Below, one piece after another: positions 4,342-62,129 of a stretch of DNA of 64,000 nucleotides; the first letter of the stretch is position 1; each line of letters starts with the position of its first letter. The stretch is from Patescibacteria group bacterium (lineage in GTDB: Bacteria > Patescibacteriota > Dojkabacteria > J137), in NCBI GenBank assembly GCA_963169855.1, contig CAUJCN010000001.1:175645-239644 (forward strand), given 5' to 3'. Position numbers and translations under genes: made by a program. A model generated the notes under the pieces. It saw only the letters and a program-made list of their open reading frames with translations. It did no database searches and had not been told where the DNA came from.

Positions 4342-4411
4342 ACAACAGAAAGTAATTGTTTTAGATATTCCAGATAAATTCCGTTATATGGAAAAGGATC
4401 TAATTGATGAA

Positions 4412-5350: not shown

Positions 5351-5575
5351 ATTGATAATATTTTCGGCTGTCTTTCGATTGTTTTCTTAATAATGGGATT
5401 ATTCTTAGCTTTCGCGAACACTGGAATTGCAGCGCAAATCAACAAATGGCAATCACAGATATTAGGAGGTGAATTTTACCCAGCACTAACTGCTTTTGTC
5501 TTGATTATCATACCTTTGTTAGTTTTAATGATAGTAAAGCTGATTGTAGTAAGGATAATCCAAAAAAGAATTTAG
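5330..5575 (+). CDS. small membrane protein
   Basis: 81 aa, two TM helices. Confidence 0.3.
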   Translation: MNKSRTQIDNIFGCLSIVFLIMGLFLAFANTGIAAQINKWQSQILGGEFYPALTAFVLIIIPLLVLMIVKLIVVRIIQKRI

Positions 5576-5618
5576 GTTATAATAAATCGATATTTAAATA
5601 GTTTTTTAAGATTTTAAT

Positions 5619-6623
5619 ATGAAAAAAGTTCTACTTATCTCAATTCCGCTGTTCCTGCTTTGCACATGTGTTTTAGTTATTGGAGGATTCGTGTTCGCAT
5701 TCAATTCTAATACAAATATTCCAGTAGTTTCCAATTTGGTAGAGCGATTAGAAAACGTGTTTGTAAATGAAGAGACTTTCAAAACTCAACTTGTTAAAGA
5801 GATCGAAAATATAGTAAATTCTGATTTTGAAAATGTAGCACCAGCATCAAACGAATTTAAAAGTGTAGCAGCAAATTATGTTTTGAAACTAGATGTTGAA
5901 TCTGAAGAAGGGGATTTTGGATTGGACTCATCTGGCGACATTATGGGAGATTCTAACGGAGATAAAGTTTTCGTTCGAGCTGATCTCGATCTAGATTTCT
6001 CTGGAATCAAGGTTGGGGGAGAAGTGTTCCTAATGAATTTTATAAATAACATGAAGTCTGAAACATTTATTAAATTAGAAGAAATTCCTTCTTTCTTATC
6101 AATGAACATTGAAGGATTAGAAGATGCAGAAGGTGAATGGGTTTTCTTTTCAGGAGATGTTGAACGAACAATTGAATCTACACCATTTGCAGAATTAGAT
6201 ACTGAAAAGAAAGCAGAGCTGCTTCAGTTAATTAATACAGATGAATTTAAGTCTTTAATAAGCCGAGGAAACGATAGAGTTTCTCCTACTACTAATATCC
6301 GATCCAAGTGTATTATTGTTGAAGCAAACGAGCTTAAGATGACTCAGCTTTTAAACAAATACGAAGAGATTGCTGGCAGCGATATTGAACATGATTTATT
6401 ACCTACACCTTTTAGATTTACAAGCGAAATGTGTTTTGGAAGAAAAGATGGAGCACTTTCATACTTAAATTTTGAAATATTTTCACCACAAGGAAATGGA
6501 AGCTTTACTTTAGGAGATATTCGATACTCAAACGAGCCTGTGAGTTTAGAAAAGCCTTCAGATTATATTAGTATCGAAGATCTAAATCTTTCCTTTCCAT
6601 TCTTGGAAGGAGCCCAATTCTAG
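5619..6623 (+). CDS. hypothetical secreted/membrane-anchored acidic protein
   Basis: 334 aa, N-terminal TM/signal anchor. Confidence 0.5.
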   Translation: MKKVLLISIPLFLLCTCVLVIGGFVFAFNSNTNIPVVSNLVERLENVFVNEETFKTQLVKEIENIVNSDFENVAPASNEFKSVAANYVLKLDVESEEGDFGLDSSGDIMGDSNGDKVFVRADLDLDFSGIKVGGEVFLMNFINNMKSETFIKLEEIPSFLSMNIEGLEDAEGEWVFFSGDVERTIESTPFAELDTEKKAELLQLINTDEFKSLISRGNDRVSPTTNIRSKCIIVEANELKMTQLLNKYEEIAGSDIEHDLLPTPFRFTSEMCFGRKDGALSYLNFEIFSPQGNGSFTLGDIRYSNEPVSLEKPSDYISIEDLNLSFPFLEGAQF

Positions 6624-21705: not shown

Positions 21706-23178
21706 ATGACAATTCTAGATACCAAGAACGAAAATTTCCAAACTACAGTAAGGACAGCCCCTAAAAAGCCGGGTTGTTATATGTATAAGGATTCGTCCGG
21801 AACTATTATCTACATTGGCAAAGCAAAGAATCTTTTCAATAGAGTTCGAAGCTATTTTATGAACTACCCCAAGTTAGAAATTAGAATTCAGCAAATGATA
21901 GATCTGGCAGTTGAAGTTGAGTATCTGGTAGTCGATTCTGATGTTGAATCGATAATTCTAGAAACGAATCTAATCAAAAAATACCACCCTAAATACAACA
22001 TTTTGATGAGGGATGATAAAAACTACAGCTGGATTCTTTTTGAGAAACAGATAAAGGGCAAGAATGATTTCCCAAGAATTAGAATTGTAAGAGATAACTC
22101 AGAACCAAATGCAGATTACTTTGGACCTTTTCCATCCAGACTTCCATTAAAAAACATTTTAAGAAGAGCAAGAAAAGTTTTTCCTTATGCGAGTTGTAAC
22201 AGAACAATTGTTCAAGTTTCAAACGATCCACTGCAAGTTGAAACAAACAATAGCATCCCTTGCCTATACTACCATTTAGGACTATGTAGCGCTCCATGTG
22301 CAAGTAAAGAAAATAGAGAAGATTACATGAAAAATTTCAACAACATAAAAAGAATTTTTCAAGGTCAAAAGGGCGAAATCATTAACGAACTTGAAGACAA
22401 AATGAAAATACTTTCTGAATCCAGAGAATACGAAAAAGCCGCTGAAGTTAGAGACAGAATCGATGATATTCAATACGTGACAAAGAGAATCAAAATAGAT
22501 AATAATGTTGATGATATAGTTGTAGCAGGGCTTGTAGAAGCTGCCAGAGAAAATGGAATTAACGAGCTAATTGAAAAATTGAAATTTCCTGCTAGCGTTT
22601 TAAGTAATCACAAAGGTTTTAGAATCGAGTGTTACGACATTAGTAACTTCCAGGGATCGAACCCGGTTGGAGCTATGACAGTAATGATTGATGGTGAATT
22701 GAGAACTGATTTGTACAGAAGATTTAAGATTCAAATCAAAGATACTCCAGATGATTTTGCCATGCATCAAGAAATGCTGGAAAGAAGGCTAAAGTACTTG
22801 ATAGACGATCAGAACAAACTAAAAGACGAATCTTTGAAGCAAATGCCAGATCTAATAATTGTAGATGGAGGAAAAGGTCAATTGAGTTCAACATTCTTAA
22901 TTCTTAAACAATTTGGTTTAGAAAAACGAATTCCAATCGTTGGGTTAGCAAAGAGAGAAGAAGAGATATTCAAACTGAATAATCAATTTGATGTTTCAAA
23001 TAATGAATCTAAAGGTCAGGAAAAAGCAAAAAAATTGTTAGCAAAGTTCGGTAGAGTAATGCTTCCAAGAAGATCCGAGTCTTTATTTATAGTTCAGAGA
23101 ATTAGAGACGAAGCTCATAGATTTGGAATTACATTCCACAGAAAACTGAGAAGTAAAGCAATGAAACTTAATGATTGA
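21706..23178 (+). CDS. uvrC: excinuclease ABC subunit C, short form lacking C-terminal (HhH)2 domain
   Basis: N-terminal GIY-YIG (GCYMYKDSSGTIIYIGKAKNLFNRVRSYF), Cys motif CLYYHLGLCSAPC, UvrBC domain EYEKAAEVRDRIDDIQ, ends shortly after EAHRFGITFHR. Confidence 0.8.
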   Translation: MTILDTKNENFQTTVRTAPKKPGCYMYKDSSGTIIYIGKAKNLFNRVRSYFMNYPKLEIRIQQMIDLAVEVEYLVVDSDVESIILETNLIKKYHPKYNILMRDDKNYSWILFEKQIKGKNDFPRIRIVRDNSEPNADYFGPFPSRLPLKNILRRARKVFPYASCNRTIVQVSNDPLQVETNNSIPCLYYHLGLCSAPCASKENREDYMKNFNNIKRIFQGQKGEIINELEDKMKILSESREYEKAAEVRDRIDDIQYVTKRIKIDNNVDDIVVAGLVEAARENGINELIEKLKFPASVLSNHKGFRIECYDISNFQGSNPVGAMTVMIDGELRTDLYRRFKIQIKDTPDDFAMHQEMLERRLKYLIDDQNKLKDESLKQMPDLIIVDGGKGQLSSTFLILKQFGLEKRIPIVGLAKREEEIFKLNNQFDVSNNESKGQEKAKKLLAKFGRVMLPRRSESLFIVQRIRDEAHRFGITFHRKLRSKAMKLND

Positions 23179-23771: not shown

Positions 23772-24027
23772 ATATCTAGTATTTTAACAGAAAAAGTTGC
23801 GACTGTAAGCGTAGCCACTCTAAGTTACATCTAAAGAAAAGATTTAAAGGCTTGAAGATCAAAGGTTCTAAAACGAAAAGATGAGAAGAATTTAAGGTTC
23901 AAAGATTAAAACCTAAAACCTGAAAGCTGAAAACACAGGATCTACATCCTAAACCTTCTCCTTCACCTTTTCCTCTTCCTTTTATCATTTGATCTTTACC
24001 TTTAACTCCTTTATATTGTTATTAGGT

Positions 24028-26526
24028 ATGAATTTTACGCTTAAAAAACGACAAAAATTTCTGGTTTTATTCTCATTCCTTTTTCTATACCTATTCACAC
24101 CTGTCAGTAATGTTTTTGCGTTGTCTGGACCAACAGAAGATGTGATTTTTGGAGTAACCCCGGGAGTAGTTAATCAGGTTAAATACGGCTGTACAGTTGA
24201 TAGTTTAAAAGGAGCTGGAGGAGGATTTGTTACCTCTGTGTCTAAACTTGTTGGAGCAGATTTTGCAGATTTGAAGTGTGCCTTAGAAACTGGAGCATTA
24301 GATTTGAATCAAGATGGAACAGGATACATTTTTACTCCAAGCTCTGGTAATCCAAACAATTCACTTTTAGGACTAGCTGTTTCTGCTTCTCAAATGATGA
24401 TTACAGAAAAGCCAGCAAGTGGAATGGATTTCATTCAAGATAAAGTATACGCATTAACTCATATAGGAACTGTTTCTGCACAAGACCCCGCTACTTACTA
24501 CCCTGGGACAGGATCAGATTTATTGAGACCTATTCAATCTTTCTGGGGATGGTCTGTAAATTTCGTTTTCTCATTCTTGGTTCTATTAATTCTTGCTATA
24601 GCATTCGCAATTATTTTCAGATCTAGATTAGGAGGGAAAGCTGACATTACAATTCAAAATTCAATCCCTAACATTGCATTGGCATTGATTCTAGTTCCGC
24701 TAAGTTATGCAATTTCAGGATTATTTATCGACGCAGTTACTTTGGGAACCAATGCTGTTCACGGATTCTTAATTGGCCCAGGAGCGCCTGGAAGTCAGGT
24801 TTATCAAACTAGAAACGACGATGGAAGTTGTGTTCCTTACAATCCAAACGATGTTACAACCGAAAATTGCGATAGAGGGTTGTATGTAGATGATGACAGA
24901 ATTAACATTTGGAATGTTAGAGGAAAGATCAGCATTGGCGAAGAAATTGGTAATGCATTAGGATCAACAATCAATGGGGGAACTACTGATGGTGCAGTTG
25001 GAATTATACTTGGATTATTCAGAGCAATCGATTCTGTAATTGGACTTTTAACCGGAGGAACATCTGGGCAATTTGCTTGGCTGGGAAGCATTATTAACTT
25101 TTTTGTTTCGATTCTGACTTTGTGGATCAGTTTAAAGATTGCATGGCAGCTATTTAAGAAATTCCTGACATTCTTGTTATTCCCGATTTTCTCACCTTTC
25201 ATCTTTGCCACAATCGCTTTGCCTGGGAATGGATTGAACGCTGTTATAAATTACGCAAAGATAATGGGGGCAGCGTCTCTAAATTTCATAGCAACCTACG
25301 CGATGTTTATTCTAACTTTAGTATTCACAAGTGAAGGATTCCAGTCACAGTTCCCAGATATAAGAACATCGGGATATATACCTCCTTTGTTAGGACTAGA
25401 ATCTATACTTGCAAGCGGAACCGATACCCAGCTAACAGGAATTACTGCATTGGTACTAACTCTTGTTGGAATTGGTATTTTCTTCAATATTCCAAATACT
25501 TTGAATAATATCGACAAGGCACTCGGAGCAGATAAAATCATACTTCCACAATTCGCAACAGATGCATTTGCAAGTATGAAGGAAAGTTTTGGTGCGACAT
25601 ATGGATTGGCGAGCAGAGGAGTTGGTCTTACAAGAACTACAGTTCAAGGTGGAATTAATTCTGTAAAAGCACTTCAAGATGGAAAAGGTTTGGTAAATAG
25701 GTGGAGAGCTAGAAGTCAACTGGCTTATGATAAAGATTTAGGATTAAATCCTTCTGACAAAGGTTCTGCTAGAAATGCGAAGTATGTAGAATTGAACAAG
25801 AAGAGACAGGGTGCTAATGCTGATATCGAAAGAGGACGAAAACTTTTGAACAATCCTAATGCAACCGCAGCACAAAAAGCTGAAGGTGAACAATTGATCC
25901 AAAATGGTCAAAAACAAATGAATAAAATTCAAAAAGAAGCTGAATTATTTGATATCAAAGGATTCTACGGAGACGATGTTAAAGCTCCATCTCTTAAGGT
26001 ATCGTTTGATTTTGAAGATGTATTTAAAGGTCCTTTCAACAGATCAGCTTTACGAACACTTAAAGCCCAAGGGCCTCAGGATATTGAACTTGGTAAAATT
26101 GTATTCGAAGCTGAAGAGTTTGAGTTTGATAATAGCTTTGAAATTAAGGCGTATAAGGCAGGAACTCCTACAGAAGCGGATCCAGCTGGACCTCCCGAAG
26201 GAGCAGCTATTAATATTAGCAATGACTCATTAGTTAGTTCTAATATTTTCTTATCTGATTTCGGAACAGAAGATAAACTTCCAACTTATGCATCTTTAGT
26301 ATTAAAAGCTAAAAGAGTTGATGTTACTAAACCGAAGGAAATTAAAATTACAGCTCTTCTACGAGTTAAGGATGCCAAATTCTTTGGGGATGTTGCTGGA
26401 TCGACAGATCCTAATGTATTGAGACCTTTGTGGTCTGTGGCTTTACTAAAGAAGTTTAGATTTAGTTATAACGACTTACTATCTGGAAGGTTTAACGTAA
26501 CATTAACAGCAGGTTCAGGTAATTAA
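24028..26526 (+). CDS. large surface protein: signal peptide, extracellular Cys-containing domain, polytopic TM core, long coiled-coil/Lys-rich tail
   Basis: ATG at 24028 after AGGT; MNFTLKKRQKFLVLFSFLFLYLF signal; 6-8 TM helices between aa about 190-520; ORF track lists TTG 23989. Confidence 0.5.
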   Translation: MNFTLKKRQKFLVLFSFLFLYLFTPVSNVFALSGPTEDVIFGVTPGVVNQVKYGCTVDSLKGAGGGFVTSVSKLVGADFADLKCALETGALDLNQDGTGYIFTPSSGNPNNSLLGLAVSASQMMITEKPASGMDFIQDKVYALTHIGTVSAQDPATYYPGTGSDLLRPIQSFWGWSVNFVFSFLVLLILAIAFAIIFRSRLGGKADITIQNSIPNIALALILVPLSYAISGLFIDAVTLGTNAVHGFLIGPGAPGSQVYQTRNDDGSCVPYNPNDVTTENCDRGLYVDDDRINIWNVRGKISIGEEIGNALGSTINGGTTDGAVGIILGLFRAIDSVIGLLTGGTSGQFAWLGSIINFFVSILTLWISLKIAWQLFKKFLTFLLFPIFSPFIFATIALPGNGLNAVINYAKIMGAASLNFIATYAMFILTLVFTSEGFQSQFPDIRTSGYIPPLLGLESILASGTDTQLTGITALVLTLVGIGIFFNIPNTLNNIDKALGADKIILPQFATDAFASMKESFGATYGLASRGVGLTRTTVQGGINSVKALQDGKGLVNRWRARSQLAYDKDLGLNPSDKGSARNAKYVELNKKRQGANADIERGRKLLNNPNATAAQKAEGEQLIQNGQKQMNKIQKEAELFDIKGFYGDDVKAPSLKVSFDFEDVFKGPFNRSALRTLKAQGPQDIELGKIVFEAEEFEFDNSFEIKAYKAGTPTEADPAGPPEGAAINISNDSLVSSNIFLSDFGTEDKLPTYASLVLKAKRVDVTKPKEIKITALLRVKDAKFFGDVAGSTDPNVLRPLWSVALLKKFRFSYNDLLSGRFNVTLTAGSGN

Positions 26527-26529
26527 TCA

Positions 26530-29500
26530 CTAAACATCTCTTCCTAGAACTGCTTTTCCGTATTCAACCCGGTCTTCAGATTCTCTTAATCTCTTTCCGC
26601 CTCTGTTTAATTTTGATCGAGCATAGATCAATCTTAAAGTTCTGGATTTATCATCAAAGACTGCAGGATCGAATCTTTCTGTTCTAATTTCTTGAATTAC
26701 CTTATTTCGCTCTTTAGCAATCGATCCAGAAGAAAGCGAGTTCAATTGTGAGAGGTAGAATTTCTGACGAGTTTTATAGTCATTAAATAGTTGTGCAATT
26801 TTTCTTCGCAACTCTACAGTATCAGATGTTGAGTTAGCTAAGTCCGTACCTTTTTCTTTTCTAGTTAAGAATGAATTCACCTGAGAAATTCTGACTTTTA
26901 CAGATGTTGTTGCATTAGCATAGTCATTTAAATTTCCTAAGAATAAGTGGATGAAATGAGCGAACACACTTGGGTCAAAAGCAAACGTCATTCCCTGCCA
27001 TCCAAAAACTTTCATCTTTGTATTAATCACTTTATTGTAAAACTTTTGTCCAACTGATCTTATTTGCGACAAAATTGTTCTTTGATATTCAGGAGATAAG
27101 GAAGAAATACCTAGTAATGCAATGACTTCTTGTGCATTCGTAGTTGCTGGATTCTGCAGATCTGCAAACAACGATTTATCTAGGAATGCATCTTGGATAT
27201 TTTGAGAATTCATCATGATATAAAGTATATCTTGTAGTCTTTGAGCATCTACTGGAGATTGAAGGAACATATTTCCTATATCTTGTGCCTGATTTATTAA
27301 TTCTCGTGGATTGTATAAACCTGAATCTGTCATGATGTCTTGGTCCAAAAAGTTTTCGATAGATTTCTCATTTACTTGCTCATCCATTACTTGAAGCATC
27401 TTTATTTTGTTTGCTTTATAAAGATTAAGAGCTCTTGGATCATCAATTATTTCTTCTGGAATTCCAAGCATACTCTCTGGTGGCAAACTTCCATTTGCTT
27501 TTACATATCTACTTCTGATTTTTCGATCGGAAATTCCTTCATCTTTCTGCAAAGCTCTACCAACTGCGTGATCGTATTGACCCTTGAAGTTCGAATTATT
27601 AATAAGCATTTGTGCTGTTGCAACAACCTTTCCTAAAGATTTTGCAGTCTCTACAACTTTATCTGAATCTATTGTGTACATTGCAAGTGTCGATAGTTCA
27701 GCTGCATCTGCAGAATCGTCGTTACCTTCCGCGTTCTTAGTAAATGTTTGTTTCTCTAAAAGTAATGTATCAATCATTGATTGGTTTATTCCTGCACGTT
27801 TAGCAGCACCGTAAAGTCTATCTAGGTAAGAAATAATTCCTCTTGTATTTGGCGAGTAGTCCAGATCAAGAAAATTGTTTAAACCATTGATTGGATTGAG
27901 TTTAGATGAAAGTGTTTGTCTTTCAACGCTTCCTTCTAATCCTTTTAACTTCTTTTTATCCTGACCTTTATACATCTTCAAAGTTGAAGCTAATCCTGCT
28001 TTATCTTGGCCTCCAAAAAAGAAGAAACCTCCTTGCACAAGATCCTCCATTAATCCTTTATCTACATTGTGTAATTGTTGGAAAAGAGTTCCTAGATTCG
28101 CAAACTTCGGTTGCAGAGAACCAGTATTTACATCCACTACTTGTTGATGAGCTTTATTTAATGGTTCGAAATATTTTAGTGATTCATTAATTTCACCACC
28201 TGATGCAAACGGAGGAAGACCCATATAGCTATAAACCTCTATATCCACTCTTTCAATTCCAGCAGAAGTCCGCATCTCTGTAAACAATTTCGTTAAACTT
28301 TCGCCATCTTTGTTTAAAGACTCTTTTAAAGATGTAAACTCTTCTTCAGTTAATGTCCCTAAAGTTTTTCCAAGCATAGTTTCAATTTCGTCTGCGAGGA
28401 ACGGATTTGTTGCTTTTGCCTTTGCAAAAGAAGTAGAGGAATCGATTAGAAGAATAATGTTTGGTTTTAAATCTTCCGCAGGTTGGGAAACGAATTGTAA
28501 AAAGAATTTTTTCTGAATTCGTTCTAATGCACCAGTTGGGTAAGAGATAATATCAACAACCTTCTGCAAATCTCCCTCAAAAAGATTAATTAGATTTGTA
28601 ACTGGAGAATCACCAGTAAGCGAACCTCTTACATCTGCTTCAATAGCTCTTGCAATATCGCTCACAGGCATGCCATTACCTTTTCGTTCAGCAATATATT
28701 TAACTTCTTGCGCAAGTGTTTTTACAGATACAGCACTTCCTGGGAACAATCGTTTCAACTCAATTGCTTTGTGCATACTAATTCTTTCAGTTGTTTCTCT
28801 ATCTTTTTTAGCAAGCTGGACTTCTGTATTTATTGTATCTACCATTGATTGAGCTTTTTGGTATGCAGAATCAAAATCACCCACAATATCAAAATCTGTC
28901 ATTTTACCTCTTGCCAGAACTGCTGCAATGTTCGGAGGAAATATAGCATTCAAGTTTAATGGAGCGTTAGGATTAGTCATTTTTTCTTGTAATCCTGTAG
29001 CAATGATATTTTCAAGGTTAGAATTTACCAACTTCTGATCTGCTTCATTCAAGTTAGCTTTTGCTCTGGCTGAGAGTACTTCTGCTTTTATTTCTAGATA
29101 TGATCGAAATTCAGGGGAATTCGGACCAAATGAAGTAGGGTTCTTTGTGTAATCTAAAGCACTTTGTAATTGAGGATACTTTTCTGGAGGAACAGAAACT
29201 TCTCCACCAGTTAAAGCAAACTCTGTTGCCTTATTTAGCAGATCTGCATTCATATCAATAGAATCGAATAACTCTCGATTTTCTCGGATGAACTTTACAG
29301 GGTCTTTTCTTAACTTTGCGGCTTCTTTCTTTTCTTTGCCAAGTGCTTTTTCATTTCTAACTTTCTGAGTTAGGATGTACCATAAAGCCCCTGTGTATTT
29401 TGCTAAGTTCTCTGGTAATTGCCATGTCAGCTTGTATAGAGAATGGAATTTATCGATGTAACTTAATACTTTTGGTTCTCCAAAACCTCTTGCCCAATCA

Positions 29501-29739
29501 TCAAAAGCTCTCACTAACTTTACAGGTCCACCTAGTGTTTCAATCTCTTTATACTTTTCCTTATCAAAAGCCTTATCGATCCATTTGCTAATATCGCCCA
29601 TGCCATCAACAAGTGCGTCTCTACCGTCTCCAACACTTCTCCAAAATCCTAATTTTTTAACAGTTCGATTACCGTTATTTAAACGGTTTTCAAATCTGCT
29701 ATCTGCTAAATCTCTAGTTACATCAGGCGCGGCTTTCAT
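26530..29739 (-). CDS. large (1069 aa) soluble hypothetical protein, translationally coupled to P-type ATPase
   Basis: 17-bp overlap with upstream ATPase gene; no TM, no Walker A. Confidence 0.5.
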   Translation of the reverse strand: MKAAPDVTRDLADSRFENRLNNGNRTVKKLGFWRSVGDGRDALVDGMGDISKWIDKAFDKEKYKEIETLGGPVKLVRAFDDWARGFGEPKVLSYIDKFHSLYKLTWQLPENLAKYTGALWYILTQKVRNEKALGKEKKEAAKLRKDPVKFIRENRELFDSIDMNADLLNKATEFALTGGEVSVPPEKYPQLQSALDYTKNPTSFGPNSPEFRSYLEIKAEVLSARAKANLNEADQKLVNSNLENIIATGLQEKMTNPNAPLNLNAIFPPNIAAVLARGKMTDFDIVGDFDSAYQKAQSMVDTINTEVQLAKKDRETTERISMHKAIELKRLFPGSAVSVKTLAQEVKYIAERKGNGMPVSDIARAIEADVRGSLTGDSPVTNLINLFEGDLQKVVDIISYPTGALERIQKKFFLQFVSQPAEDLKPNIILLIDSSTSFAKAKATNPFLADEIETMLGKTLGTLTEEEFTSLKESLNKDGESLTKLFTEMRTSAGIERVDIEVYSYMGLPPFASGGEINESLKYFEPLNKAHQQVVDVNTGSLQPKFANLGTLFQQLHNVDKGLMEDLVQGGFFFFGGQDKAGLASTLKMYKGQDKKKLKGLEGSVERQTLSSKLNPINGLNNFLDLDYSPNTRGIISYLDRLYGAAKRAGINQSMIDTLLLEKQTFTKNAEGNDDSADAAELSTLAMYTIDSDKVVETAKSLGKVVATAQMLINNSNFKGQYDHAVGRALQKDEGISDRKIRSRYVKANGSLPPESMLGIPEEIIDDPRALNLYKANKIKMLQVMDEQVNEKSIENFLDQDIMTDSGLYNPRELINQAQDIGNMFLQSPVDAQRLQDILYIMMNSQNIQDAFLDKSLFADLQNPATTNAQEVIALLGISSLSPEYQRTILSQIRSVGQKFYNKVINTKMKVFGWQGMTFAFDPSVFAHFIHLFLGNLNDYANATTSVKVRISQVNSFLTRKEKGTDLANSTSDTVELRRKIAQLFNDYKTRQKFYLSQLNSLSSGSIAKERNKVIQEIRTERFDPAVFDDKSRTLRLIYARSKLNRGGKRLRESEDRVEYGKAVLGRDV

Positions 29740-39359: not shown

Positions 39360-41222
39360 TTACTCCCCCTTCCTCAACTCATACATCCTCACAATCTCCT
39401 CAACACTATTAGGGTAATCCTTATCTCGATTCCAAATCTTTAATCTTGGAAATCGAATAGACAACCCTTTTGTTGAATCATCGTTTTTTACTTTTGCAGG
39501 AATTCCTTTCGCTGCTGTGTGGTTTGGGCTTCTTGTAATTTCGTCTGCAACAATTTCCATAACTAATTTTGGTTTTACCCAAACGTCTGGAACTAAAGTT
39601 TTATCTACAACATAGTTTTCTGGTTTCTCGGCCACGAAATGTTTCTGTAAGTCTGCATTAATTGTTGGAGCTTGTTCATCTGTAAATCCGCTTCCAACTT
39701 TTCCAATAGAGTAGTAGGTATCGTTACTTGCATCGTAGACCCCTGCCAACATCGCACCAAATCCGTATTTATTTCTCGCACCTTGTCCGTAGAAATATCC
39801 CAACACAACAACGTCGATTGTATCTACCAAGTGACTTTGAGTATTAGCCTTCAGCTTAATCCATTTGAAATTTCTTGTTCCAGGTTCGTATGTAGATTTT
39901 TCTTCTTTAGTAATTATTCCTTCTAAACCTGCATTCACTTTGCTGAAGAAATATTCTTCCAACTCAGCTTCTGATTGCATTTGTTTTGTCTCCAGCATCT
40001 TTAATGAGCCCTGAGCTTTGAGCTTTGAGCTTTGAGCTTCCTCCTTAGAGTTCTGAGAAAGCAAAGACTCCAGTATTCTCAGCCGTTCCTCTATCGGTTC
40101 CTGAGTTATATCTTTTCCATTCAAATACAAAACATCAAAACACATTGCTCGGACAGGAATATCTTTTGCATAAGTTTCCACATCGTACTTTCTTCTTCGC
40201 TGCATTGTTTCCTGATAAGTTTTGTAATTACCATCTTCTTCTACACCAATAATTTCTGAATCCAAAACAACAGAATCAACACCAAGATTTTTTACAGATT
40301 CCAAAAGCTCTGGGAAGTTGTCTGTAAGTCTTTCCATATTTCGACTGTAGACTTCGGCCTCACCAGTTTTTTTATCAAAATGAATTTGACCACGTAGTCC
40401 ATCCAACTTTGGCTGAACAAAACACTTCGGCATTCTTTCCCAAACAGAAGCTGCAGAATCTTCTCGCTCCACAAGCTTAGATGCGATTGGAACTCCAGGA
40501 ACAATTTTAATTTTTGATAGATTTTCAATTGCTGAAGATTTATCAGTGAGAATAATTTCCGCAAGTTGACCAGCATCTGCTCTTGCTCCAAAAGCCTGAT
40601 CAATTAATTTTCTTGTAGATTTATCTCCAGACACAACAAAAGAAAGAGAGTCGAGTAGAGTTTTGTCGCTAGCACCAAGCCTTAAGTCTCCTAAAATAAT
40701 TCTAGTTGTGAATTTAATTTCCTGAGGTTCAAGAATTCTGAAAAGGTTTTCGTACAATTTTAATTTTGCATCTTGAGATCCTTTCCCAGAAGTTTGAGTT
40801 ATTTTAATTAAGAATGAGTGTAGTTCTTCGATAGTTTCGACTTTGATGTCTGTCACATCGAGCTTGTCGAGATGTGTTTCACCATTTTGGTTATCATGCT
40901 TCGACAGGCTCAGCATGACATCTCCTTTGAATGTTTCTCGAATTTCTGCTGCAACATTCCCCATATCCCCAAGTTTACCCAACATCGACTTAACATCTTC
41001 AGAAGTAAATTCCTGAAGTTTTCTGATAATCATTTTGTCTGAGAAGTTGAATTCAATCGGCTCGAATTTTGGTGCAACTCTACCTTGAAGAAAGTAGATA
41101 AAAAATCGAGCTTCTTTTGGTGAAAGCTGGGTTAGAAAATCCGCGGTTAAAGTGGTTAGATCGTTTCTAGAACTTGTGGTTTCGAGTTTGTTTAAAAAAG
41201 CTGAGAGTTCTGTTAGTTTCAT
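39360..41222 (-). CDS. ATP-dependent DNA ligase
   Basis: adenylation motif I KLDGLRGQIH, EGIITK, WIKLK motifs. Confidence 0.8.
   Translation of the reverse strand: MKLTELSAFLNKLETTSSRNDLTTLTADFLTQLSPKEARFFIYFLQGRVAPKFEPIEFNFSDKMIIRKLQEFTSEDVKSMLGKLGDMGNVAAEIRETFKGDVMLSLSKHDNQNGETHLDKLDVTDIKVETIEELHSFLIKITQTSGKGSQDAKLKLYENLFRILEPQEIKFTTRIILGDLRLGASDKTLLDSLSFVVSGDKSTRKLIDQAFGARADAGQLAEIILTDKSSAIENLSKIKIVPGVPIASKLVEREDSAASVWERMPKCFVQPKLDGLRGQIHFDKKTGEAEVYSRNMERLTDNFPELLESVKNLGVDSVVLDSEIIGVEEDGNYKTYQETMQRRRKYDVETYAKDIPVRAMCFDVLYLNGKDITQEPIEERLRILESLLSQNSKEEAQSSKLKAQGSLKMLETKQMQSEAELEEYFFSKVNAGLEGIITKEEKSTYEPGTRNFKWIKLKANTQSHLVDTIDVVVLGYFYGQGARNKYGFGAMLAGVYDASNDTYYSIGKVGSGFTDEQAPTINADLQKHFVAEKPENYVVDKTLVPDVWVKPKLVMEIVADEITRSPNHTAAKGIPAKVKNDDSTKGLSIRFPRLKIWNRDKDYPNSVEEIVRMYELRKGE
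40006..40040. repeat. heptanucleotide tandem repeat (GAGCTTT)n inside ligase CDS
   Basis: gagccct gagcttt gagcttt gagcttt gagcttc; encodes EAQSSKLKAQGSL on coding strand. Confidence 0.7.
40895..40920. repeat. hairpin-family copy embedded in ligase CDS
   Basis: CATGCTTCGACAGGCTCAGCATGACA; the 12-mer TCGACAGGCTCA is also at 47943 and, reverse-complemented, at 7569. Confidence 0.6.
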
Positions 41223-45169: not shown

Positions 45170-45213
45170 ATTAAACATTGGCTTATTCCCCAATTTCTTT
45201 TATAATACAATCA

Positions 45214-47265
45214 ATGAAGAGAATATTTTTACTAATAATTGCGGCCACATTTTTCACATTCAGTGCTGGAATCGTACGCGCTAACGACATTTTTACAGAT
45301 CCACTGGCAGATGCTGCAGATCAATTTTTTCTAGTTTCACCTACAGCAAATCAAAAAGTAAAAAACTCAGTAGTAATAAGTGTAAGAACTTTTGATGATG
45401 AACAAACTGCGATTCCTACAACAATAGAAATTTGGGATTCTGCATCTTGTAGATCAACGAAAGTAGGAACAATAATGAGCACGAACTTTGTCTCGAATGC
45501 TTCTGTTAATAACGATATCAACTGGAACACAAAAGCCAATGTTGGAGCAGCGCCATTAAACGATGGAGATTACTGTTTGAAAGTTTGTCTTACTTTAAAG
45601 AACGGTGCTAATAATTACACAGCATGTAATGGAAGAAGAGTGAGAGTTCTAAACAATAATAGAATTCCTACAATCACTTCTTTGCCACCACAGCTATCAA
45701 TTTACGAAAACGATGCTTGGCAATACGATGTAAACGCAACTGACCCAGATAACGACCCTATTACATATAGACTTGTTCAAACAGCAAGTTTCTTATCGAT
45801 TGATCCTTCTACTGGATTGATTACTAGAAACGGCGGAGTTTCATTCCCAAACGGAGTTACAAGATTAGACTATACAATCATTGTTGCAGCAGATGATAAT
45901 TTTGCTGGAGCGGCAACTCAGCAATTTGTTCTTTCAATTTTGAAAAGACCACCGCCACCTCCAGTTAATCCACCAACTCAGCCAACACCTGAACCTGAAG
46001 TAACAAATACAGCGGCTCAGATTACATTTATTACACCTACAGAAAATCAGATTTTCAAAGGTGCGGATAACAAAATCACTTGGAAGATTGTTGATCCAGA
46101 CGGATTAGCAGAAGGTTATTTACTATTCGCAAAGGAAGAAAGTAATCCTGATTTCGATATAATTTTTGAATTCAGTACTTTAGAAACAAACTCATTTACT
46201 TGGGATGTTGGCAATTTACCTGATGGAAGATACTACTTAAATCTTGTAGCAATCGACTCCGAAAATGTTGAAACTATCAAACGGTCACCAACATTTGTAA
46301 TTCAAAATAAAGAGCCAGAAGAACCACAGGAACCTGAAGAACCTTCAGATGCATTTGTAGAAATTACAGATATTCTTCCTCAAGATGGAGCAACTCTAAA
46401 TTTACGAAAACCTGAAGTAGTTGGGAAATTCAGACCTAGTGTAAATGCAGAAGTGGATATAAATTCATTTAAATTCTTTTTAAACGGCGAAGACAAAACT
46501 AGCTTATGTACAGTTTCGATTTTAGACTTTACATGTAGAGTGGATCAGGATTTAGTAAACGGAACATACGAAATTAAACTATCAGTTTCTGCAGCAGGAG
46601 GCGAGAGCAGAGAAGTAACTCAATCAGTAAATATTAATGCCGAAGATATTGTATCGTTCCCACAAGGCGAATCAGATAATGTAAATTTCTTGGGGATTTT
46701 AATTCCAAGATCAGTTGTAAATTTGATTTTAATTCTTTGCGGATTAACATTCCTATTATTATTTATTCCATGGATTCTAATCAGAATTTGGAAAAGAGAC
46801 GATGTAGAGGAAGAGGAAATCACAACTGTAACTACTGATTACACAAGTTCAGATCCTTACTCATCTTTTGATAACAGCTACTTTATTACGCCAACGGTGG
46901 ATAAACCTGTTGTAGAAGAACCGGTAATAAAAGAAACAACTGTAGCAGAACAGCCAAAGAATGCAATTGAAAAAGAAGACCAAGACATCCGAGCACAAAT
47001 TGTTGCAGACTACTCTCAACCAAATTATCTTGTAACTGAAGCTCCTGCACCAGTTGTTGATGTTCCAAAAGCTCCTGAAGTTGTGGAAACGAAACCTGTA
47101 GAAACTACAGAAACACCAGTAGCCTCTGTAACTGAAGCACCAAAGGAAAAATCTTTAGATGAAAAGACTGAAGAAGAAATAATGCAGGATTATTACAAAT
47201 ATATTAATCCAACAAACGATCAGACATTTGTAGAGCCAACTCCAACTGACGAACCAACAAAATAG
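45214..47265 (+). CDS. cell-surface protein with cadherin-like/putative Ig (He_PIG-like) repeats, Pro-rich linkers and C-terminal TM anchor
   Basis: signal peptide MKRIFLLIIAATFFTFSAGIVRA; YENDAWQYDVNATDPDNDPITY motif; TM LILILCGLTFLLLFIPWILIRIW; ORF track TTG start 45178. Confidence 0.55.
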   Translation: MKRIFLLIIAATFFTFSAGIVRANDIFTDPLADAADQFFLVSPTANQKVKNSVVISVRTFDDEQTAIPTTIEIWDSASCRSTKVGTIMSTNFVSNASVNNDINWNTKANVGAAPLNDGDYCLKVCLTLKNGANNYTACNGRRVRVLNNNRIPTITSLPPQLSIYENDAWQYDVNATDPDNDPITYRLVQTASFLSIDPSTGLITRNGGVSFPNGVTRLDYTIIVAADDNFAGAATQQFVLSILKRPPPPPVNPPTQPTPEPEVTNTAAQITFITPTENQIFKGADNKITWKIVDPDGLAEGYLLFAKEESNPDFDIIFEFSTLETNSFTWDVGNLPDGRYYLNLVAIDSENVETIKRSPTFVIQNKEPEEPQEPEEPSDAFVEITDILPQDGATLNLRKPEVVGKFRPSVNAEVDINSFKFFLNGEDKTSLCTVSILDFTCRVDQDLVNGTYEIKLSVSAAGGESREVTQSVNINAEDIVSFPQGESDNVNFLGILIPRSVVNLILILCGLTFLLLFIPWILIRIWKRDDVEEEEITTVTTDYTSSDPYSSFDNSYFITPTVDKPVVEEPVIKETTVAEQPKNAIEKEDQDIRAQIVADYSQPNYLVTEAPAPVVDVPKAPEVVETKPVETTETPVASVTEAPKEKSLDEKTEEEIMQDYYKYINPTNDQTFVEPTPTDEPTK

Positions 47266-47993: not shown

Positions 47994-49922
47994 ATGAAAA
48001 CGTCAGAGCAAATCAGAGAAGAATTTTTGAAATTTTGGGAAGAATCACCTAGAAACGCCAAGCTTGTTCCGAACATGTCATTAGTGCCAAATAACGATCC
48101 TACTTTACTTTTCGTAAATTCAGGAATGTTCCCACTTGTTCCTTATTTAGGAGGACAACCACACCCTTTGGGAACGAGACTTTATAATTTGCAAAGATGC
48201 GTAAGAACAATCGATATTGATGATGTAGGGGACAATCGACATTTAACTTGTTTCGAAATGATGGGCAATTGGTCACTTGGGGATTTTACAAAAGCTGAAC
48301 AAATTCCTTGGATTTTGGAACTTCATGTAGAAAGATACGGATTCGATCCATCCAGACTATACATCTCGGTTTGGGGAGGAGACGATTCTATTCCAAGAGA
48401 CGACGAAGCAATCGAACTTTGGAAAAAGGCATTCAGGAAATACGGCATCGAAGCTGAATACTCAGAAGACAGATCAAACTTACCAAAAGATTTAGAAGAA
48501 GGAAAAACTTGGAAGCCAAGAATCTTTCCATTCGGAAAGAAAGAAAATTGGTGGCAAAGAGGACCTGATGTTGTTGGAGAACTTGGAGGACCTTGTTCAG
48601 AAATTTTCTTTGATACAGGAAAAATTGTTCACGAGCAGGAAAAGTACGACATTAACGATGACTCATGGAGATTCATCGAAATCGGAAACAACGTTTTCAT
48701 GGAGTACAGATTTGATGAAAGCGGAAAGTGGGTTCAGATGGAAAAGAAGAACATCGACTTTGGGGGAGGATTTGAAAGAGTAGTTAAGTGTATTCAAGAT
48801 CAAGAAGACTTCTTTGGAACAGACATTTTCATGCCTTACATTCAAAAAGTTGAAGAGCTTTCTGGAATGAATTACAAAGACGGAAATGGAAAAGATCACG
48901 ATAAATCAAACTCATTTAGAGTTATTGCGGACCACATTAGAACAAGCGTTTTAATGATTGGAGACGGAGTTGTTCCTTCAAACAAAGACCAGGGATATAT
49001 TCTAAGAAGACTTATAAGAAGAATGATCCGACACGCTATGAAAGTTGGAATTCAAGATAATTTTGCAGAAGATTTGGCAAAAGTTGTAATCGAAAAAATG
49101 ACTCACGGTTACCCTCATTTACAAGAACAGAAAGCTCGAATTATTTCTGAATTAGTTAGAGAAGAAGAAAAGTTCTCAAAGACAATAAGCAATGGTTTGA
49201 GAGAATTAAACAAACTTGTAGACGAAGTAAATAATTCTCAGAGAACTTCCCTGCCTGCCGGCAGGCATGGGATTTCGGGAGGAGACGCTTTCAACTTGTA
49301 CGAAACTTACGGTTTTCCAGTAGAACTTACATTAGAACTTTTGAAAGAAATGGGAATTTCTGAATTTTCTATGGATGAATTCAACGCTGAACAGGAAAAA
49401 CACCAATCCGATTCTAGAGCTGGAGCAGAGCAGAAGTTTAAAGGAGGTTTAGCTGATCAGTCAGAAGAAACTACAAAACTTCATACAGCTCATCACTTGT
49501 TACTTGCAGCTTTACAGAAACTTGTTAATCCTACTATCAAGCAGAGGGGAAGTAATATTACTGCTGAAAGATTAAGAATTGACTTCAATTTGGATAGAAA
49601 ACTAACTGAAGAAGAAATCAAGAATGTAGAAGAATGGGTTAACGCAAGAATTGCAGAAAAGTTACCTGTTGTAAGATTAGAAATGAAAAAAGAAGAAGCT
49701 GAAAATATTGGTGCACAAATGGAATTCGGAGCTAAATATCCAGATGTCGTATCAATTTATTACATTGGGAATTCAGTGGAAGAATCTGTTTCTAAAGAAT
49801 TCTGCGGAGGTCCACACGTTTCCAATACTTCTGAACTTGGTGAAGGCGGAAAAACTTTCAAGATTGTAAAAGAAGAAAGTAGTGGAAGCGGAATCAGAAG
49901 AATAAAAGCTTCTTTAGTTTAA
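47994..49922 (+). CDS. alaS: alanyl-tRNA synthetase, short form lacking C-Ala domain
   Basis: N-terminal catalytic-domain motifs (LVPNNDPTLLFVNSGM, RHLTCFEMMGNWSLGDF), editing HxxxH (HTAHHLLLAAL) and CGGPHV; 642 aa. Confidence 0.85.
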   Translation: MKTSEQIREEFLKFWEESPRNAKLVPNMSLVPNNDPTLLFVNSGMFPLVPYLGGQPHPLGTRLYNLQRCVRTIDIDDVGDNRHLTCFEMMGNWSLGDFTKAEQIPWILELHVERYGFDPSRLYISVWGGDDSIPRDDEAIELWKKAFRKYGIEAEYSEDRSNLPKDLEEGKTWKPRIFPFGKKENWWQRGPDVVGELGGPCSEIFFDTGKIVHEQEKYDINDDSWRFIEIGNNVFMEYRFDESGKWVQMEKKNIDFGGGFERVVKCIQDQEDFFGTDIFMPYIQKVEELSGMNYKDGNGKDHDKSNSFRVIADHIRTSVLMIGDGVVPSNKDQGYILRRLIRRMIRHAMKVGIQDNFAEDLAKVVIEKMTHGYPHLQEQKARIISELVREEEKFSKTISNGLRELNKLVDEVNNSQRTSLPAGRHGISGGDAFNLYETYGFPVELTLELLKEMGISEFSMDEFNAEQEKHQSDSRAGAEQKFKGGLADQSEETTKLHTAHHLLLAALQKLVNPTIKQRGSNITAERLRIDFNLDRKLTEEEIKNVEEWVNARIAEKLPVVRLEMKKEEAENIGAQMEFGAKYPDVVSIYYIGNSVEESVSKEFCGGPHVSNTSELGEGGKTFKIVKEESSGSGIRRIKASLV

Positions 49923-50539
49923 ACTTCGAATGCAGAAGGACTTGAACCCTGGTTTGAGTCCTTTTTCTTTCCATTTTTTGTATTCTTAATTGTTCCTAAA
50001 TACTTCCTTAATTTATCGTATTCGCAAAGATCAGCCATTTCGTAGTCAGGAAAGACATGTGGTGGTACCTGAAAGTCTTTACTAGCAGAGGCCATTACCA
50101 AGTATCTAGCAATTGATTCTGCAGCGTCTCTAAAAAACATATCATTAACAACCTGCTCTCTATTGCCATATTGTCCAAGGATATTAACTATTTCAAGCCT
50201 TTTCTTTGCAATTCTCTTTTCTACCATGCTTCTTAATTCTGCGAAGAACTCTTCTTGTTCGTAACCATCCTTTAAAGAAAAATGATATCCGGCTAGTGGT
50301 TGTTCATATCTATCAAGTTGAACACTTGCCATCCAAGTTTCGTAATCGCTGTCTGGTTCTAATATTTCAGTTTCACTTGAATTATTAACTTTTCCAGACC
50401 CTCTTCTCCTTTCCTCTACAACAAAAATCATACCAACGAAAACATATTGAAATTCTGGTAAAAGTGTAGAAAACAAAGGAAATTCGCTTGTTTTATCTAT
50501 TATTTCAAATTGAATAAAGTCGTCGCCCATTTTTAGCAA
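49919..50539 (-). CDS. hypothetical protein
   Basis: 206-aa ORF. Confidence 0.4.
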   Translation of the reverse strand: MLKMGDDFIQFEIIDKTSEFPLFSTLLPEFQYVFVGMIFVVEERRRGSGKVNNSSETEILEPDSDYETWMASVQLDRYEQPLAGYHFSLKDGYEQEEFFAELRSMVEKRIAKKRLEIVNILGQYGNREQVVNDMFFRDAAESIARYLVMASASKDFQVPPHVFPDYEMADLCEYDKLRKYLGTIKNTKNGKKKDSNQGSSPSAFEV

Positions 50540-50574: not shown

Positions 50575-51810
50575 TTAGGAAAGTAGAAGCTGTGCAGATT
50601 CGTTAGAATTTTTGATCTCGTATTCCGAAGGTGTTGCTGTTGTGTAAACGACCTGGTTAGTTCTTTTTGTAAACTCGTCGAACATTAGAGGTCTATTATC
50701 TAGCGCTGATCTCATTCGAAATCCGTAATCAACAAGGTTTTCTTTTCTTGATCTATCTCCTGAATACATTCCTCCAATCTGAGGGACTGTAATATGGGAT
50801 TCGTCGATAATTGTTAGATAGTCTTCTGGAAAATAATCGAGTAAAGTAGACGGAGCTGAACCAACTGCTCGCCCATCTATGTATCTAGAATAATTCTCAA
50901 TTCCCTTGCAGAATCCAGTTTCTTCGATCATTTCCATGTCGTAGTTTACTCTTTGTTTTAATCTAGTTGCTTCTACAAGTTTACCTCTATCAGTAAAGTC
51001 TTTTACCTCTTTTTCTAAATCTTCTCGAATTCGCACAATTGCTCTTTTTAGTTTTTCTTCTGGAGTTACGTTATGCTTTGCTGGAAAGATTGTAATCTCG
51101 TCGACTCTTCCAATAACTTCTCCACTGATTGGATTCATAATTCTAATTGAATCGATGTCATCTCCAAAGAATTCAACTCTAACAGCTCTGTCTTCGGAAA
51201 CTGTAAGATTAATATCTAATGAGTCACCTCTAACTCTGTAAGTTCCTGTTCCAAAATCATTGTTAGTTCTTTCGTACTGCATATCTCTTAAACGAGAAAG
51301 TAGTTTGTCTCGTGTTAAAGCTTTTCCTGTTTCAATTTTCACGCTCATACCCTCGTAATCATCTGGATTTCCAAGACCATATATGCATGAAACAGTTGAT
51401 ACAATAATAGTATCCTTTCGTGATAAAAGCATTTGAGTTGCAGAGTTTCTGTATCTTTCGATTACCTCGTTAATATCTGAATCTTTCTCAATATATAAAT
51501 CTCTAGAAGGAACGTATGCTTCTGGTTGGTAATAGTCGTAGTAACTTACAAAGTATTCCACTGCATTTTCTGGAAAAAAGTCTATAAATTCTGAGTACAA
51601 CTGTGCCGCCAAAGTCTTATTATGGGATAAGATCAATGTTGGTTTATTTACATTCTGAATCAGGTTCGCCATAGTGAAAGTCTTACCTGTTCCCGTAGCT
51701 CCAATCAAAGTCTGATGTTTTAATCCAGCTTTTACACCTTCTGAAAGAATATCAATTGCCTGTGGTTGATCGCCAGATGGTTTGTAGTTTGAGTGAAGTT
51801 TAAATGCCAT
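50575..51810 (-). CDS. uvrB: excinuclease ABC subunit B, N-terminal fragment (domains 1a/2/1b only); truncated gene or pseudogene
   Basis: GATGTGKTF Walker A, NKTLAAQLY, VEYFVSYYDYYQPEAYVP; stops after ...TTATPSEYEIKNS, lacking helicase domain 3 (motifs IV-VI) and UvrC-binding domain. Confidence 0.75.
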   Translation of the reverse strand: MAFKLHSNYKPSGDQPQAIDILSEGVKAGLKHQTLIGATGTGKTFTMANLIQNVNKPTLILSHNKTLAAQLYSEFIDFFPENAVEYFVSYYDYYQPEAYVPSRDLYIEKDSDINEVIERYRNSATQMLLSRKDTIIVSTVSCIYGLGNPDDYEGMSVKIETGKALTRDKLLSRLRDMQYERTNNDFGTGTYRVRGDSLDINLTVSEDRAVRVEFFGDDIDSIRIMNPISGEVIGRVDEITIFPAKHNVTPEEKLKRAIVRIREDLEKEVKDFTDRGKLVEATRLKQRVNYDMEMIEETGFCKGIENYSRYIDGRAVGSAPSTLLDYFPEDYLTIIDESHITVPQIGGMYSGDRSRKENLVDYGFRMRSALDNRPLMFDEFTKRTNQVVYTTATPSEYEIKNSNESAQLLLS

Positions 51811-51984
51811 AGTTGAATTATACCATCGACTGAAAGGAGATGATAAAAGCTTTCCTTGGTCAAAGATAAAGTGAGCTTATATCGCAGAAACGCTATTTTA
51901 ATAACCAACTATCCAGATGAAATCCTAACCCAGATTGATGTTGTTTAAACTGGAACTTGAGGTATATAATATTGACATTACTTT

Positions 51985-53218: not shown

Positions 53219-53986
53219 TCAATATACCTTAATTTCATTTACACAGCTACAGATCTTACTCCATTCAGGATCCAGGTAACATTTAGGGTCTCTCGATGTA
53301 CATCGATATCTTCCGTGAAAAACCATTCTGAGTGCAGTATCTGCCCATTCAGATGGTGGAAAAATCTTCATTAAATCTTTCTCAACTTTCTCTGGAGTTT
53401 TATTTTTTGATAATCCTAACCGATTGGCTGTTCTTAAAACATGAGTATCAACAACAAATCCTGGTGGAACGTAACCAGCCACAACCTTAGGCATTTTTTT
53501 ATCTTCTTCAGTTAAGAATCCGTCTAGTCTCCCATCTGTAACTCCTGCGTGTTGCCTTTCAATAACTCTTTTTCTGAAAGCCTCTGGTCTTGCAAACCAT
53601 TCAGCAATAACTACATTCGCAGTTTTTCTTCCGACACCAGGTAGAGTAGTTAGTTCTTCCATTGTCGAAGGAATCTCCCCTCGGAATTCTGAATTCACCT
53701 TCTTCGCCATTTCGACTAAATGTTTAGACTTAGTTTTATAGTAATTAATGCCTCCAATTATCATCTCTACATCAATTGGATCAGCTTTTTCTAAATCTTT
53801 GAGAGTTGGATACTTTTTGAAAAGTGCTGGAGTTTTTTTATTAACTGTTGCATCTAAAGTCTGTGCAGAAAGCATTACAGACACAATCAATTCATAAACA
53901 TTGTTATGAGTAAGCGGTGTTTGAACAACAGGATAATCGCGTTTAAGAAGTTCATCTACTTTTTTAACTCGGTCCTCAAAAGTCAT
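53219..53986 (-). CDS. nth: endonuclease III (HhH-GPD DNA glycosylase) with about 45-aa insertion
   Basis: LPGVGRKTANVV HhH, catalytic VDTHVLRTANRLGL, 4Fe-4S CTSRDPKCYLDPEWSKICSC. Confidence 0.75.
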   Translation of the reverse strand: MTFEDRVKKVDELLKRDYPVVQTPLTHNNVYELIVSVMLSAQTLDATVNKKTPALFKKYPTLKDLEKADPIDVEMIIGGINYYKTKSKHLVEMAKKVNSEFRGEIPSTMEELTTLPGVGRKTANVVIAEWFARPEAFRKRVIERQHAGVTDGRLDGFLTEEDKKMPKVVAGYVPPGFVVDTHVLRTANRLGLSKNKTPEKVEKDLMKIFPPSEWADTALRMVFHGRYRCTSRDPKCYLDPEWSKICSCVNEIKVY

Positions 53987-57410: not shown

Positions 57411-57486
57411 TGGTGCCAGGGGGCAGACTTGAACTGCCGACACCTCGCTCTTCAGGCGAGTGCTCTACCAGCTGAGCTACCCTAGC
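57411..57486 (-). tRNA. tRNA-Phe (GAA), CCA encoded
   Basis: manual cloverleaf: acceptor GCUAGGG/CCCUGGC, anticodon stem CUCGC/GCGAG, loop CUGAAGA, T-loop UUCAAGU. Confidence 0.85.
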
Positions 57487-57767: not shown

Positions 57768-57840
57768 TGGGCAGTATAGGATTCGAACCTATGACCATCC
57801 CGGTGTAAACGGGGCGCTCTACCAGCTGAGCTAACTGCCC
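57768..57840 (-). tRNA. tRNA-Val (UAC), CCA not encoded
   Basis: acceptor GGGCAGU/ACUGCCC, anticodon loop UUUACAC, T-loop UUCGAAU. Confidence 0.8.
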
Positions 57841-62056: not shown

Positions 62057-62129
62057 GGGTAGCTAGCTCAACTGGTAGAGCATTTCTTTGACGTAGAAAA
62101 GGTTACAGGTTCGAGCCCTGTGTTACCCA
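62057..62129 (+). tRNA. tRNA-Val (GAC)
   Basis: acceptor GGGUAGC/GUUACCC, anticodon stem UUUCU/AGAAA, loop UUGACGU, T-loop UUCGAGC. Confidence 0.8.

Follow-up and report, generated by a model that had tools for sequence, protein, structure and literature searches.

The stretch of DNA analyzed here (the window) comprises 64,000 nucleotides of contig CAUJCN010000001.1 (positions 175,645 to 239,644) from a Patescibacteria group bacterium of the Dojkabacteria, and it contains, at 50575..51810 on the minus strand, an open reading frame (ORF) for the N-terminal part of the nucleotide excision repair (NER) protein UvrB. In this lineage the uvrB gene was divided once, into two conserved genes that are physically separate and inherited together. 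It is likely that the ORF, designated uvrB-N, is one of the two genes left by this ancient fission in a clade of Patescibacteria, and that the two halves form a two-subunit UvrB held together non-covalently.

The uvrB-N gene (411 codons) starts with ATG, ends with TAA (50575-50577) and contains no frameshifts or internal stops. Residues 3-404 of its product (411 amino acids, aa) align with positions 2-403 of the 653 in the NCBIfam UvrB profile PRK05298, giving a score of 640.9 bits, which does not reach the equivalog cut-off of 743 bits only because the last 250 profile positions are missing. In the PDB alignment, the N-half covered residues 5-410 of 661 of B. subtilis UvrB (2D7D), stopping before the sequence IIRPTGLLDP, and Pfam analysis identified UvrB_inter (PF17757, domain 2; residues 157-246, full profile length, E=9.4e-29) together with the N-terminal lobe of ResIII/DEAD. 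A preliminary description of the window had reported a uvrB ORF reduced to its N-terminal 411 codons, with domains 1a, 2 and 1b (including Walker A and the beta-hairpin), which ends where domain 3 is due and is followed by an unrelated ORF; the profile, structure and motif data agree with all of these points.

The individual motifs were placed as follows (all on the minus strand). Walker A (helicase motif I, GATGTGKT) was located in the translation at 51679..51702, and Walker B (motif II, DESH) lies at 50794..50805. The beta-hairpin region VSYYDYYQPEAYVPSRDLYIEKDSDIN, the part of UvrB concerned with damage verification, occupies 51469..51549 and was recognized by the motif VSYYDYYQPEAYVP in the translation. 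The UvrA-interaction domain (domain 2, 51073..51342) includes the conserved RVRGD sequence and also matches PDB 3FPN chain B. The C-terminal tail NSNESAQLLLS (50578..50610) corresponds to the helix that, in full-length sister UvrBs, precedes a variable insert, and the fission point is situated just after it.

Profile and structure alignments revealed that domain 3 and the C-terminal UVR domain (domain 4) are absent from the 411-aa ORF. A tblastn search with a full-length relative found no UvrB domain 3 elsewhere in the 64-kb window, the sole other match being the UVR motif of uvrC. The downstream ORF (49919-50539; 206 aa) has no Pfam or NCBIfam match and no similarity to UvrB and, since it is also not kept beside the N-half in relatives, it was rejected as a possible partner.

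The shortened form of UvrB is not peculiar to this genome. Among the best 120 database matches, which constituted our homologue set, 108 are of N-half length (398-441 aa; 65-100% identical), and the named ones are assigned to Candidatus Dojkabacteria or "Patescibacteria group", while the remaining 12 are full-length (668-718 aa) and at most 69% identical. The 107 other homologues of this length (65-92% identical), coming from NCBI, ENA, JGI and Logan assemblies, stop at the same place. In an alignment of the 108 N-halves, 121 of 411 columns are invariant and a further 79 are at least 90% conserved, with conserved blocks at the P-loop, motif Ia, the beta-hairpin, DESH, GIENYSR and DNRPL. All eight positions of Walker A are at least 90% conserved (G37, T39, G40, G42, K43 and T44 being invariant), and both DESH and residues 86-101 of the beta-hairpin (YFVSYYDYYQPEAYVP, including the Tyr-rich core) are invariant.

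A neighbour-joining (NJ) tree based on residues 1-404, in which 16 UvrBs served as outgroups, places the short forms in one clade, which is sister to the 12 full-length proteins. The bipartition isolating the split forms was recovered in 199 of 200 bootstrap replicates (NJ, 64-taxon subsample with 36 split forms). Judging from the alignment and the tree, the truncation is one old event that has been maintained by selection.

Within a set of protein representatives clustered at 50% identity, which hides the split clade, N-half-like entries were mostly fragments and chimeras. Two of them were rejected as independent splits: P0349 (403 aa), which looks error-ridden (its Walker A reads GSEKT), and P0240 (405 aa), considered also as a C-half, which is unbroken through the linker and starts inside domain 1. 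A third entry from another lineage, P0313 (466 aa, 47% identity), resembles a UvrB N-half with an unrelated Gly/Lys-rich tail after ATPGPRE, and may represent either an independent truncation or a frameshifted gene call.

The missing part of UvrB is encoded in the same lineage by a separate gene. When the last 318 residues of the nearest full-length relative were used as a query, many stand-alone proteins of 291-317 aa (approx. 297 aa) were found; they are composed of Helicase_C, the C-terminal domain of UvrB and a UVR motif (PF02151), and begin with M..LPxxYxGIVYQIIRPTGLLDP. When aligned to 2D7D, such a C-half covers residues 407-657 of B. subtilis UvrB, and therefore the N-half (5-410) and the C-half (407-657) together tile the whole protein. 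The alignment of 111 C-halves shows no variation in helicase motifs IV (TLTK), V (DADKEGFLRS) and VI (GRAAR); at the new N-terminus, Y7 and G9 do not vary either, and conservation reaches at least 90% at L3 and P4. Where names are given, NCBI and UniRef entries are called "DEAD/DEAH box helicase family protein" or "UvrB/UvrC motif-containing protein", and JGI labels both halves "excinuclease ABC subunit B".

Both genes were found on one molecule in a related genome. The N-half P0022 and the C-half P0128 are encoded by contig_16963, which is identical to OY969472.1 ("chromosome: 1", 1,140,724 bp); the former lies at approx. 805.4 kb on the plus strand and the latter at approx. 1,086.1 kb on the minus strand, i.e. 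about 280 kb apart. In total, seven N/C pairs could be formed on the basis of equal size of the largest contig (1,140,724; 1,193,217; 1,149,470; 202,872; 169,298; 151,094 and 98,125 bp). The pairwise identities among the N-halves and among their partner C-halves are correlated (r=0.78, a value that only one of 5000 label permutations attained), which is what two parts of one function would show if they were inherited together. In a contig scan with the C-half P0128, ordinary full-length UvrBs of other phyla dominate among the matches listed; the Dojkabacteria chromosomes among them, OY969472.1 and OZ246402.1, both carry a stand-alone C-half and not a full-length uvrB, and the genome of the window is not listed.

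In the genome from which the window derives, the partner is probably P0209, a C-half of 293 aa (349.4 bits against PRK05298; only the simple sum with the N-half, approx. 990, exceeds 743). The sequencing runs that contain P0209 include ERR10655378 and ERR10655380, and the N-half of the window (P0001) is present in both of these. The tetranucleotide composition of the P0209 locus (L087, 6.9 kb) correlates with that of the window at r=0.978, which compares with 0.962-0.983 for chunks within the window and 0.875-0.946 for other Dojkabacteria loci. In addition, the identity tiers of P0209 to other C-halves (88-90%, 77-80% and approx. 65-75%) mirror those of P0001 to the N-halves (row r=0.95). The NCBI contigs carrying P0209 (817,811 bp) and the N-half (245,155 bp) add up to 1.06 Mb, against 1.14-1.19 Mb for two related chromosomes, and none of the best 120 N-half matches has a largest contig of 817,811 bp on record.

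The full-length sister proteins indicate where the gene was broken. They contain a lineage-specific insert of approx. 15-35 residues between "ATPxEYE..S......" and "VEQIIRPTG", which is absent from the outgroups and whose middle is variable and edges conserved; in the alignment, the ends of the N-halves and the starts of the C-halves fall inside this variable middle. A second insert of approx. 29 residues, predicted with high confidence to be a helix, is located in domain 3 and is common to the sisters and the C-halves.

Gene order was also informative. In a sister contig, nth (HhH-GPD) is located directly upstream of the full-length uvrB, and S30AE and mnmA 4-5 kb downstream. In the split genomes, nth is found upstream of the N-half, this window included, where an nth-like HhH-GPD glycosylase gene at 53219..53986 (minus strand) is the ancestral upstream neighbour and serves as a synteny anchor. 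The C-half of OY969472.1 is placed between S30AE and mnmA, and a second genome keeps mnmA nearby. No remnant of the other half was detectable at eight split loci. Each half has thus kept its own ancestral neighbours, which points to chromosomal rearrangement, and the simplest account would be one or more such rearrangements with a breakpoint in a dispensable loop. An ancestor with a variable insert of 15-35 residues in the linker between domain 1 and domain 3 would have had its uvrB cut within this insert; the 5′ half would have remained beside nth and gained a stop codon, and the 3′ half would have remained near S30AE/mnmA and gained a start codon and its own promoter.

The S30AE/mnmA neighbourhood of the C-halves of other genomes is not kept at the P0209 locus, so this lineage appears to have been rearranged further. 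Downstream of the C-half gene, L087 encodes (4234-6531, plus strand) a 765-aa DUF8128/TrwB_AAD_bind protein, i.e. a VirD4-like coupling ATPase.

Both genes have a promoter-like site of the same layout. For uvrB-N this is TTATCA-18-TGgTATAAT (51817..51846, minus strand), which ends 6 nt before the ATG and would constitute a leaderless-type unit, and for the C-half gene in L087 it is TGcTATAAT (2984-3003), also 6 nt before the ATG. Extended −10 boxes that match TGnTATAAT exactly or closely and end 6-8 nt before the ATG, with no Shine-Dalgarno sequence, precede 18 of the 62 open frames of at least 120 aa. The genes with this arrangement include, in the window, uvrB-N, uvrC, mutL and the DNA ligase gene (starts at 21706, 58846, 41222, 34923, 13814 and others) and, outside it, the C-half gene of L087, which suggests that leaderless transcripts may be widespread in this organism.

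According to the proposed mechanism, the N and C proteins would come together, without a covalent bond, as a functional UvrB that serves UvrABC excision repair. The N subunit would contribute to ATP binding with its P-loop and DESH, would probe for damage with the beta-hairpin, behind which it would clamp DNA, and would bind UvrA through domain 2. The C subunit (approx. 297 aa; here probably P0209) would supply motifs IV-VI, whose arginine fingers complete the ATPase site and hence the motor, and would present the UVR coiled coil that recruits UvrC. Domain 3 of UvrB provides half of the ATP site, and its Arg540 and Arg543 are essential (PMC3458569). The invariant arginine fingers on the C-half and the conserved P-loop and DESH on the N-half argue for one joint ATPase.

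Assembly of the two proteins could be aided in two ways. The conserved N-terminal segment of the C-half, LPxxYxGIVYQIIRPTGLLDP, may dock on domain 1a (strand donation), and ATP and DNA may form a bridge from one RecA-like lobe to the other. When a full-length sister was modelled with AF2, the region equivalent to the N-half tail was the end of a helix (397-411), followed by a loop and a short strand, "VAQ", before IIRPTG (pLDDT approx. 88). In the model of the C-half alone, the first 23 residues are coil (pLDDT 71-77) and the rest of domain 3 is above 90. Donation of this segment to the sheet of domain 1a, a domain that extends to about residue 414 in B. caldotenax UvrB, fits these predictions, but is not proved by them.

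Several points weigh against this reading. The binding between the two halves is putative, and the RecA-lobe interfaces of SF2 enzymes are usually small. The strand donation is deduced from differences in secondary structure and pLDDT and from the domain boundaries of UvrB. Six of the seven N/C pairings were made by equal size of the largest contig alone, and the evidence by which P0209 was assigned to this genome (co-occurrence, composition and phylogenetic position, not an assembly record) is strong but circumstantial. Finally, no uvrA was found with two Firmicutes UvrA queries in the window or in 17 related Dojkabacteria loci, and the uvrC gene of the window (21706..23178, plus strand), coding for a 490-aa protein with GIY-YIG, a UVR motif and an RNase H-like endonuclease domain, lacks the C-terminal (HhH)2 DNA-binding domain, as the preliminary description had also remarked, and so the pathway may differ from the textbook one. 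The UvrC protein ends 15 aa past the endonuclease domain, and its match to PDB 3C65 chain A extends no further than residue 170 of 226. The UVR motif that it retains is the known docking partner of the UvrB UVR domain, which here is carried by the separate C-half.

The best surviving alternative, which we consider improbable, is subfunctionalization. The halves would no longer cooperate: the N-half would act alone, for instance as a platform for UvrD or as a damage clamp that is loaded by UvrA and binds ATP without hydrolysing it, and the C-half would act alone or with another partner. This would be consistent with the location of the two genes, which are unlinked and each equipped with their own promoter, and with the properties of an isolated N-half of Thermus UvrB, which is stable and binds the UvrD Tudor domain; moreover, the association of the halves in Dojkabacteria is something that we infer. 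It is difficult to reconcile, however, with the invariance in 111 C-halves of motif V and of the arginine-finger motif VI (GRAAR), elements matched in the 108 N-halves by a P-loop and DESH whose positions either do not vary or show at least 90% conservation. The halves are also co-inherited at correlated rates, and every large contig examined that carries one half shows the other by matching contig size.

We regard it as very unlikely that the ORF is a truncated remnant or pseudogene of a degenerating NER system heading for loss. Such a state had been suggested in the preliminary description (as a degenerating or remodelled system), and the absence of coding sequence for domains 3 and 4 from the locus and from the 64-kb window, as well as a uvrC gene that is also short of a domain, would be in line with it. 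Nevertheless, 108 N-half-length homologues with identities down to 65% keep both their length and all of the motifs, the split forms are monophyletic and anciently diverged, matching C-halves are retained, and the ORF is intact. The pattern is one of strong purifying selection throughout the clade, in which all catalytic and partner-binding motifs have been kept. The same description had offered a split gene as an alternative and recommended a search for the C-terminal half. It is this alternative that stood: stand-alone C-halves occur throughout the lineage, with a probable partner (P0209) for this genome and one N/C pair placed on a single 1.14-Mb chromosome, and the existence of a separate gene for domains 3-4 refutes the idea of a reduced uvrB.

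Covalent rejoining of the halves after expression, by a split intein, RNA trans-splicing or programmed read-through, is similarly hard to credit. Unlinked halves are the classic context of split inteins, such as that of cyanobacterial DnaE. However, the N-halves mostly end 11-16 residues past ATPxxYE and the C-halves start approx. 10 residues before IIRPTG, distances into which intein fragments (approx. 100 and 35 aa) do not fit. There is no Pfam match to a Hint/intein domain, and the junction peptides (approx. 10-15 residues) are homologous to the linker of the sisters. An Rfam search of both junctions (E≤1) gave nothing intron-like, only chance-level matches to small RNAs, and read-through past the TAA would add unrelated sequence that stops again after 13 codons. 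An artefact of sequencing or assembly (a false stop or a chimeric join at approx. 50575), which the preliminary description had also considered and which is a possibility only a priori, as for any metagenome-assembled genome, has practically no likelihood, since the 411-aa gene and its neighbours were recovered in identical form from four independently assembled sequencing runs, more than 100 further assemblies (NCBI, ENA, JGI and Logan) show a stop at this place, and the complete chromosomes OY969472.1 and OZ246402.1 encode a stand-alone C-half, the N-half being separate on OY969472.1.

The two-subunit UvrB that we favour resembles canonical single-chain UvrB (PRK05298/TIGR00631; 2D7D and B. 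caldotenax 1D9Z), with which it shares 53-58% identity over domains 1a, 2 and 1b. The N-half carries motifs I-III together with the beta-hairpin and the domain that binds UvrA, and the C-half carries motifs IV-VI and UVR. In contrast to the canonical protein, it consists of two polypeptides specified by unlinked genes, neither of which reaches the equivalog cut-off, and it has the variable linker insert (the site of the break) and the approx. 29-aa helical insert in domain 3. The closest single-chain proteins are the sister UvrBs of approx. 710 aa (P0097, P0112 and others), which are 65-69% identical to the N-half; the C-halves are 54-71% identical to the C-terminal region of P0097. The sisters share both inserts, an "LPxDYxG" element and the nth-uvrB neighbourhood with the split forms, but their gene is continuous, which represents the pre-fission state.

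Comparable divisions are found in other systems. In the naturally split reverse gyrases of Nanoarchaeum equitans and Methanopyrus kandleri, a helicase-containing DNA enzyme that is normally a single chain likewise occurs as two subunits, which form an active heterodimer (review PMC4117796). These enzymes come from other organisms and another family, and their breaks differ as well: in reverse gyrases the cut falls either inside the topoisomerase domain or at the boundary of the helicase and topoisomerase modules, whereas uvrB was cut between its RecA-like lobes. An N-half of Thermus thermophilus UvrB (PDB 7EGT chain A, 411 residues) has nearly the same boundary and length as the uvrB-N product, folds alone and was crystallized as a stable protein, but, unlike the natural product, it is a laboratory construct. 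Cyanobacterial dnaE-n and dnaE-c also are two unlinked genes for consecutive parts of one protein; in contrast to these split-intein genes, the uvrB halves have no intein fragments, and covalent rejoining is not expected.

UvrB is regarded as universally single-chain, with its ATPase site between domains 1a and 3. That genes can undergo fission in reduced genomes is already known; a split uvrB would surprise a UvrB specialist. We found no mention of one in the literature searched (uvrB fission, Dojkabacteria uvrB, and split genes of Patescibacteria or the Candidate Phyla Radiation, CPR), subscription journals lying outside the coverage.

There is perhaps an even chance that a class-level lineage of Patescibacteria relies on an obligate two-subunit UvrB for NER, cut between the RecA-like lobes and with the lobes held by the donated linker strand and the lineage-specific inserts. 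If so, it would be a natural SF2-type motor whose ATPase site lies between two separately encoded, unlinked polypeptides, and regulation could then act on the very assembly of the ATPase. A natural split UvrB would provide a ready system for the study of communication between the lobes, of what joins them, and of control of the ATPase by subunit association. With each half under the equivalog cut-off and entered in named records as a DEAD/DEAH box helicase family or UvrB/UvrC motif-containing protein, pathway reconstructions may wrongly score these CPR genomes as lacking uvrB. In terms of evolution, the case would represent a clean route to gene fission, in which a variable loop is inserted, the chromosome is broken inside this loop and both pieces are retained.

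Several other features of the window were recorded. The alaS gene (47994-49922, plus strand; 642 aa) was considered as a further truncated or split gene and rejected, since its product is an ordinary short AlaRS that passes the short-form model PRK01584 (610 bits against a cut-off of 529). Between alaS and the convergent 206-aa ORF, at 49934-49965 (plus strand), there is a 14-bp hairpin followed by a T-run, which overlaps the 3′ end of the 206-aa ORF; the 2.5 kb scanned contained no other terminator-like site. This bacterial genome encodes, at 39360-41222 (minus strand), a 620-aa ATP-dependent DNA ligase of the archaeal/eukaryotic type (DNA_ligase_A_N/M/C); no NAD-dependent ligA was seen among the window ORFs scanned. 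Two long ORFs, at 23989-26526 (plus strand, 845 aa) and 26530-29739 (minus strand, 1069 aa), have no Pfam match at E≤0.001. The product of a 695-aa ORF (45178-47265, plus strand) has a hydrophobic segment at its N-terminus, a transmembrane stretch near its C-terminus and linkers rich in Pro and Glu; it shows only a faint match to Kre9_KNH and is probably a surface protein. The window's only Rfam matches above the gathering score are three tRNA genes, at 57414-57486 and 57768-57840 (minus strand) and at 62057-62129 (plus strand).

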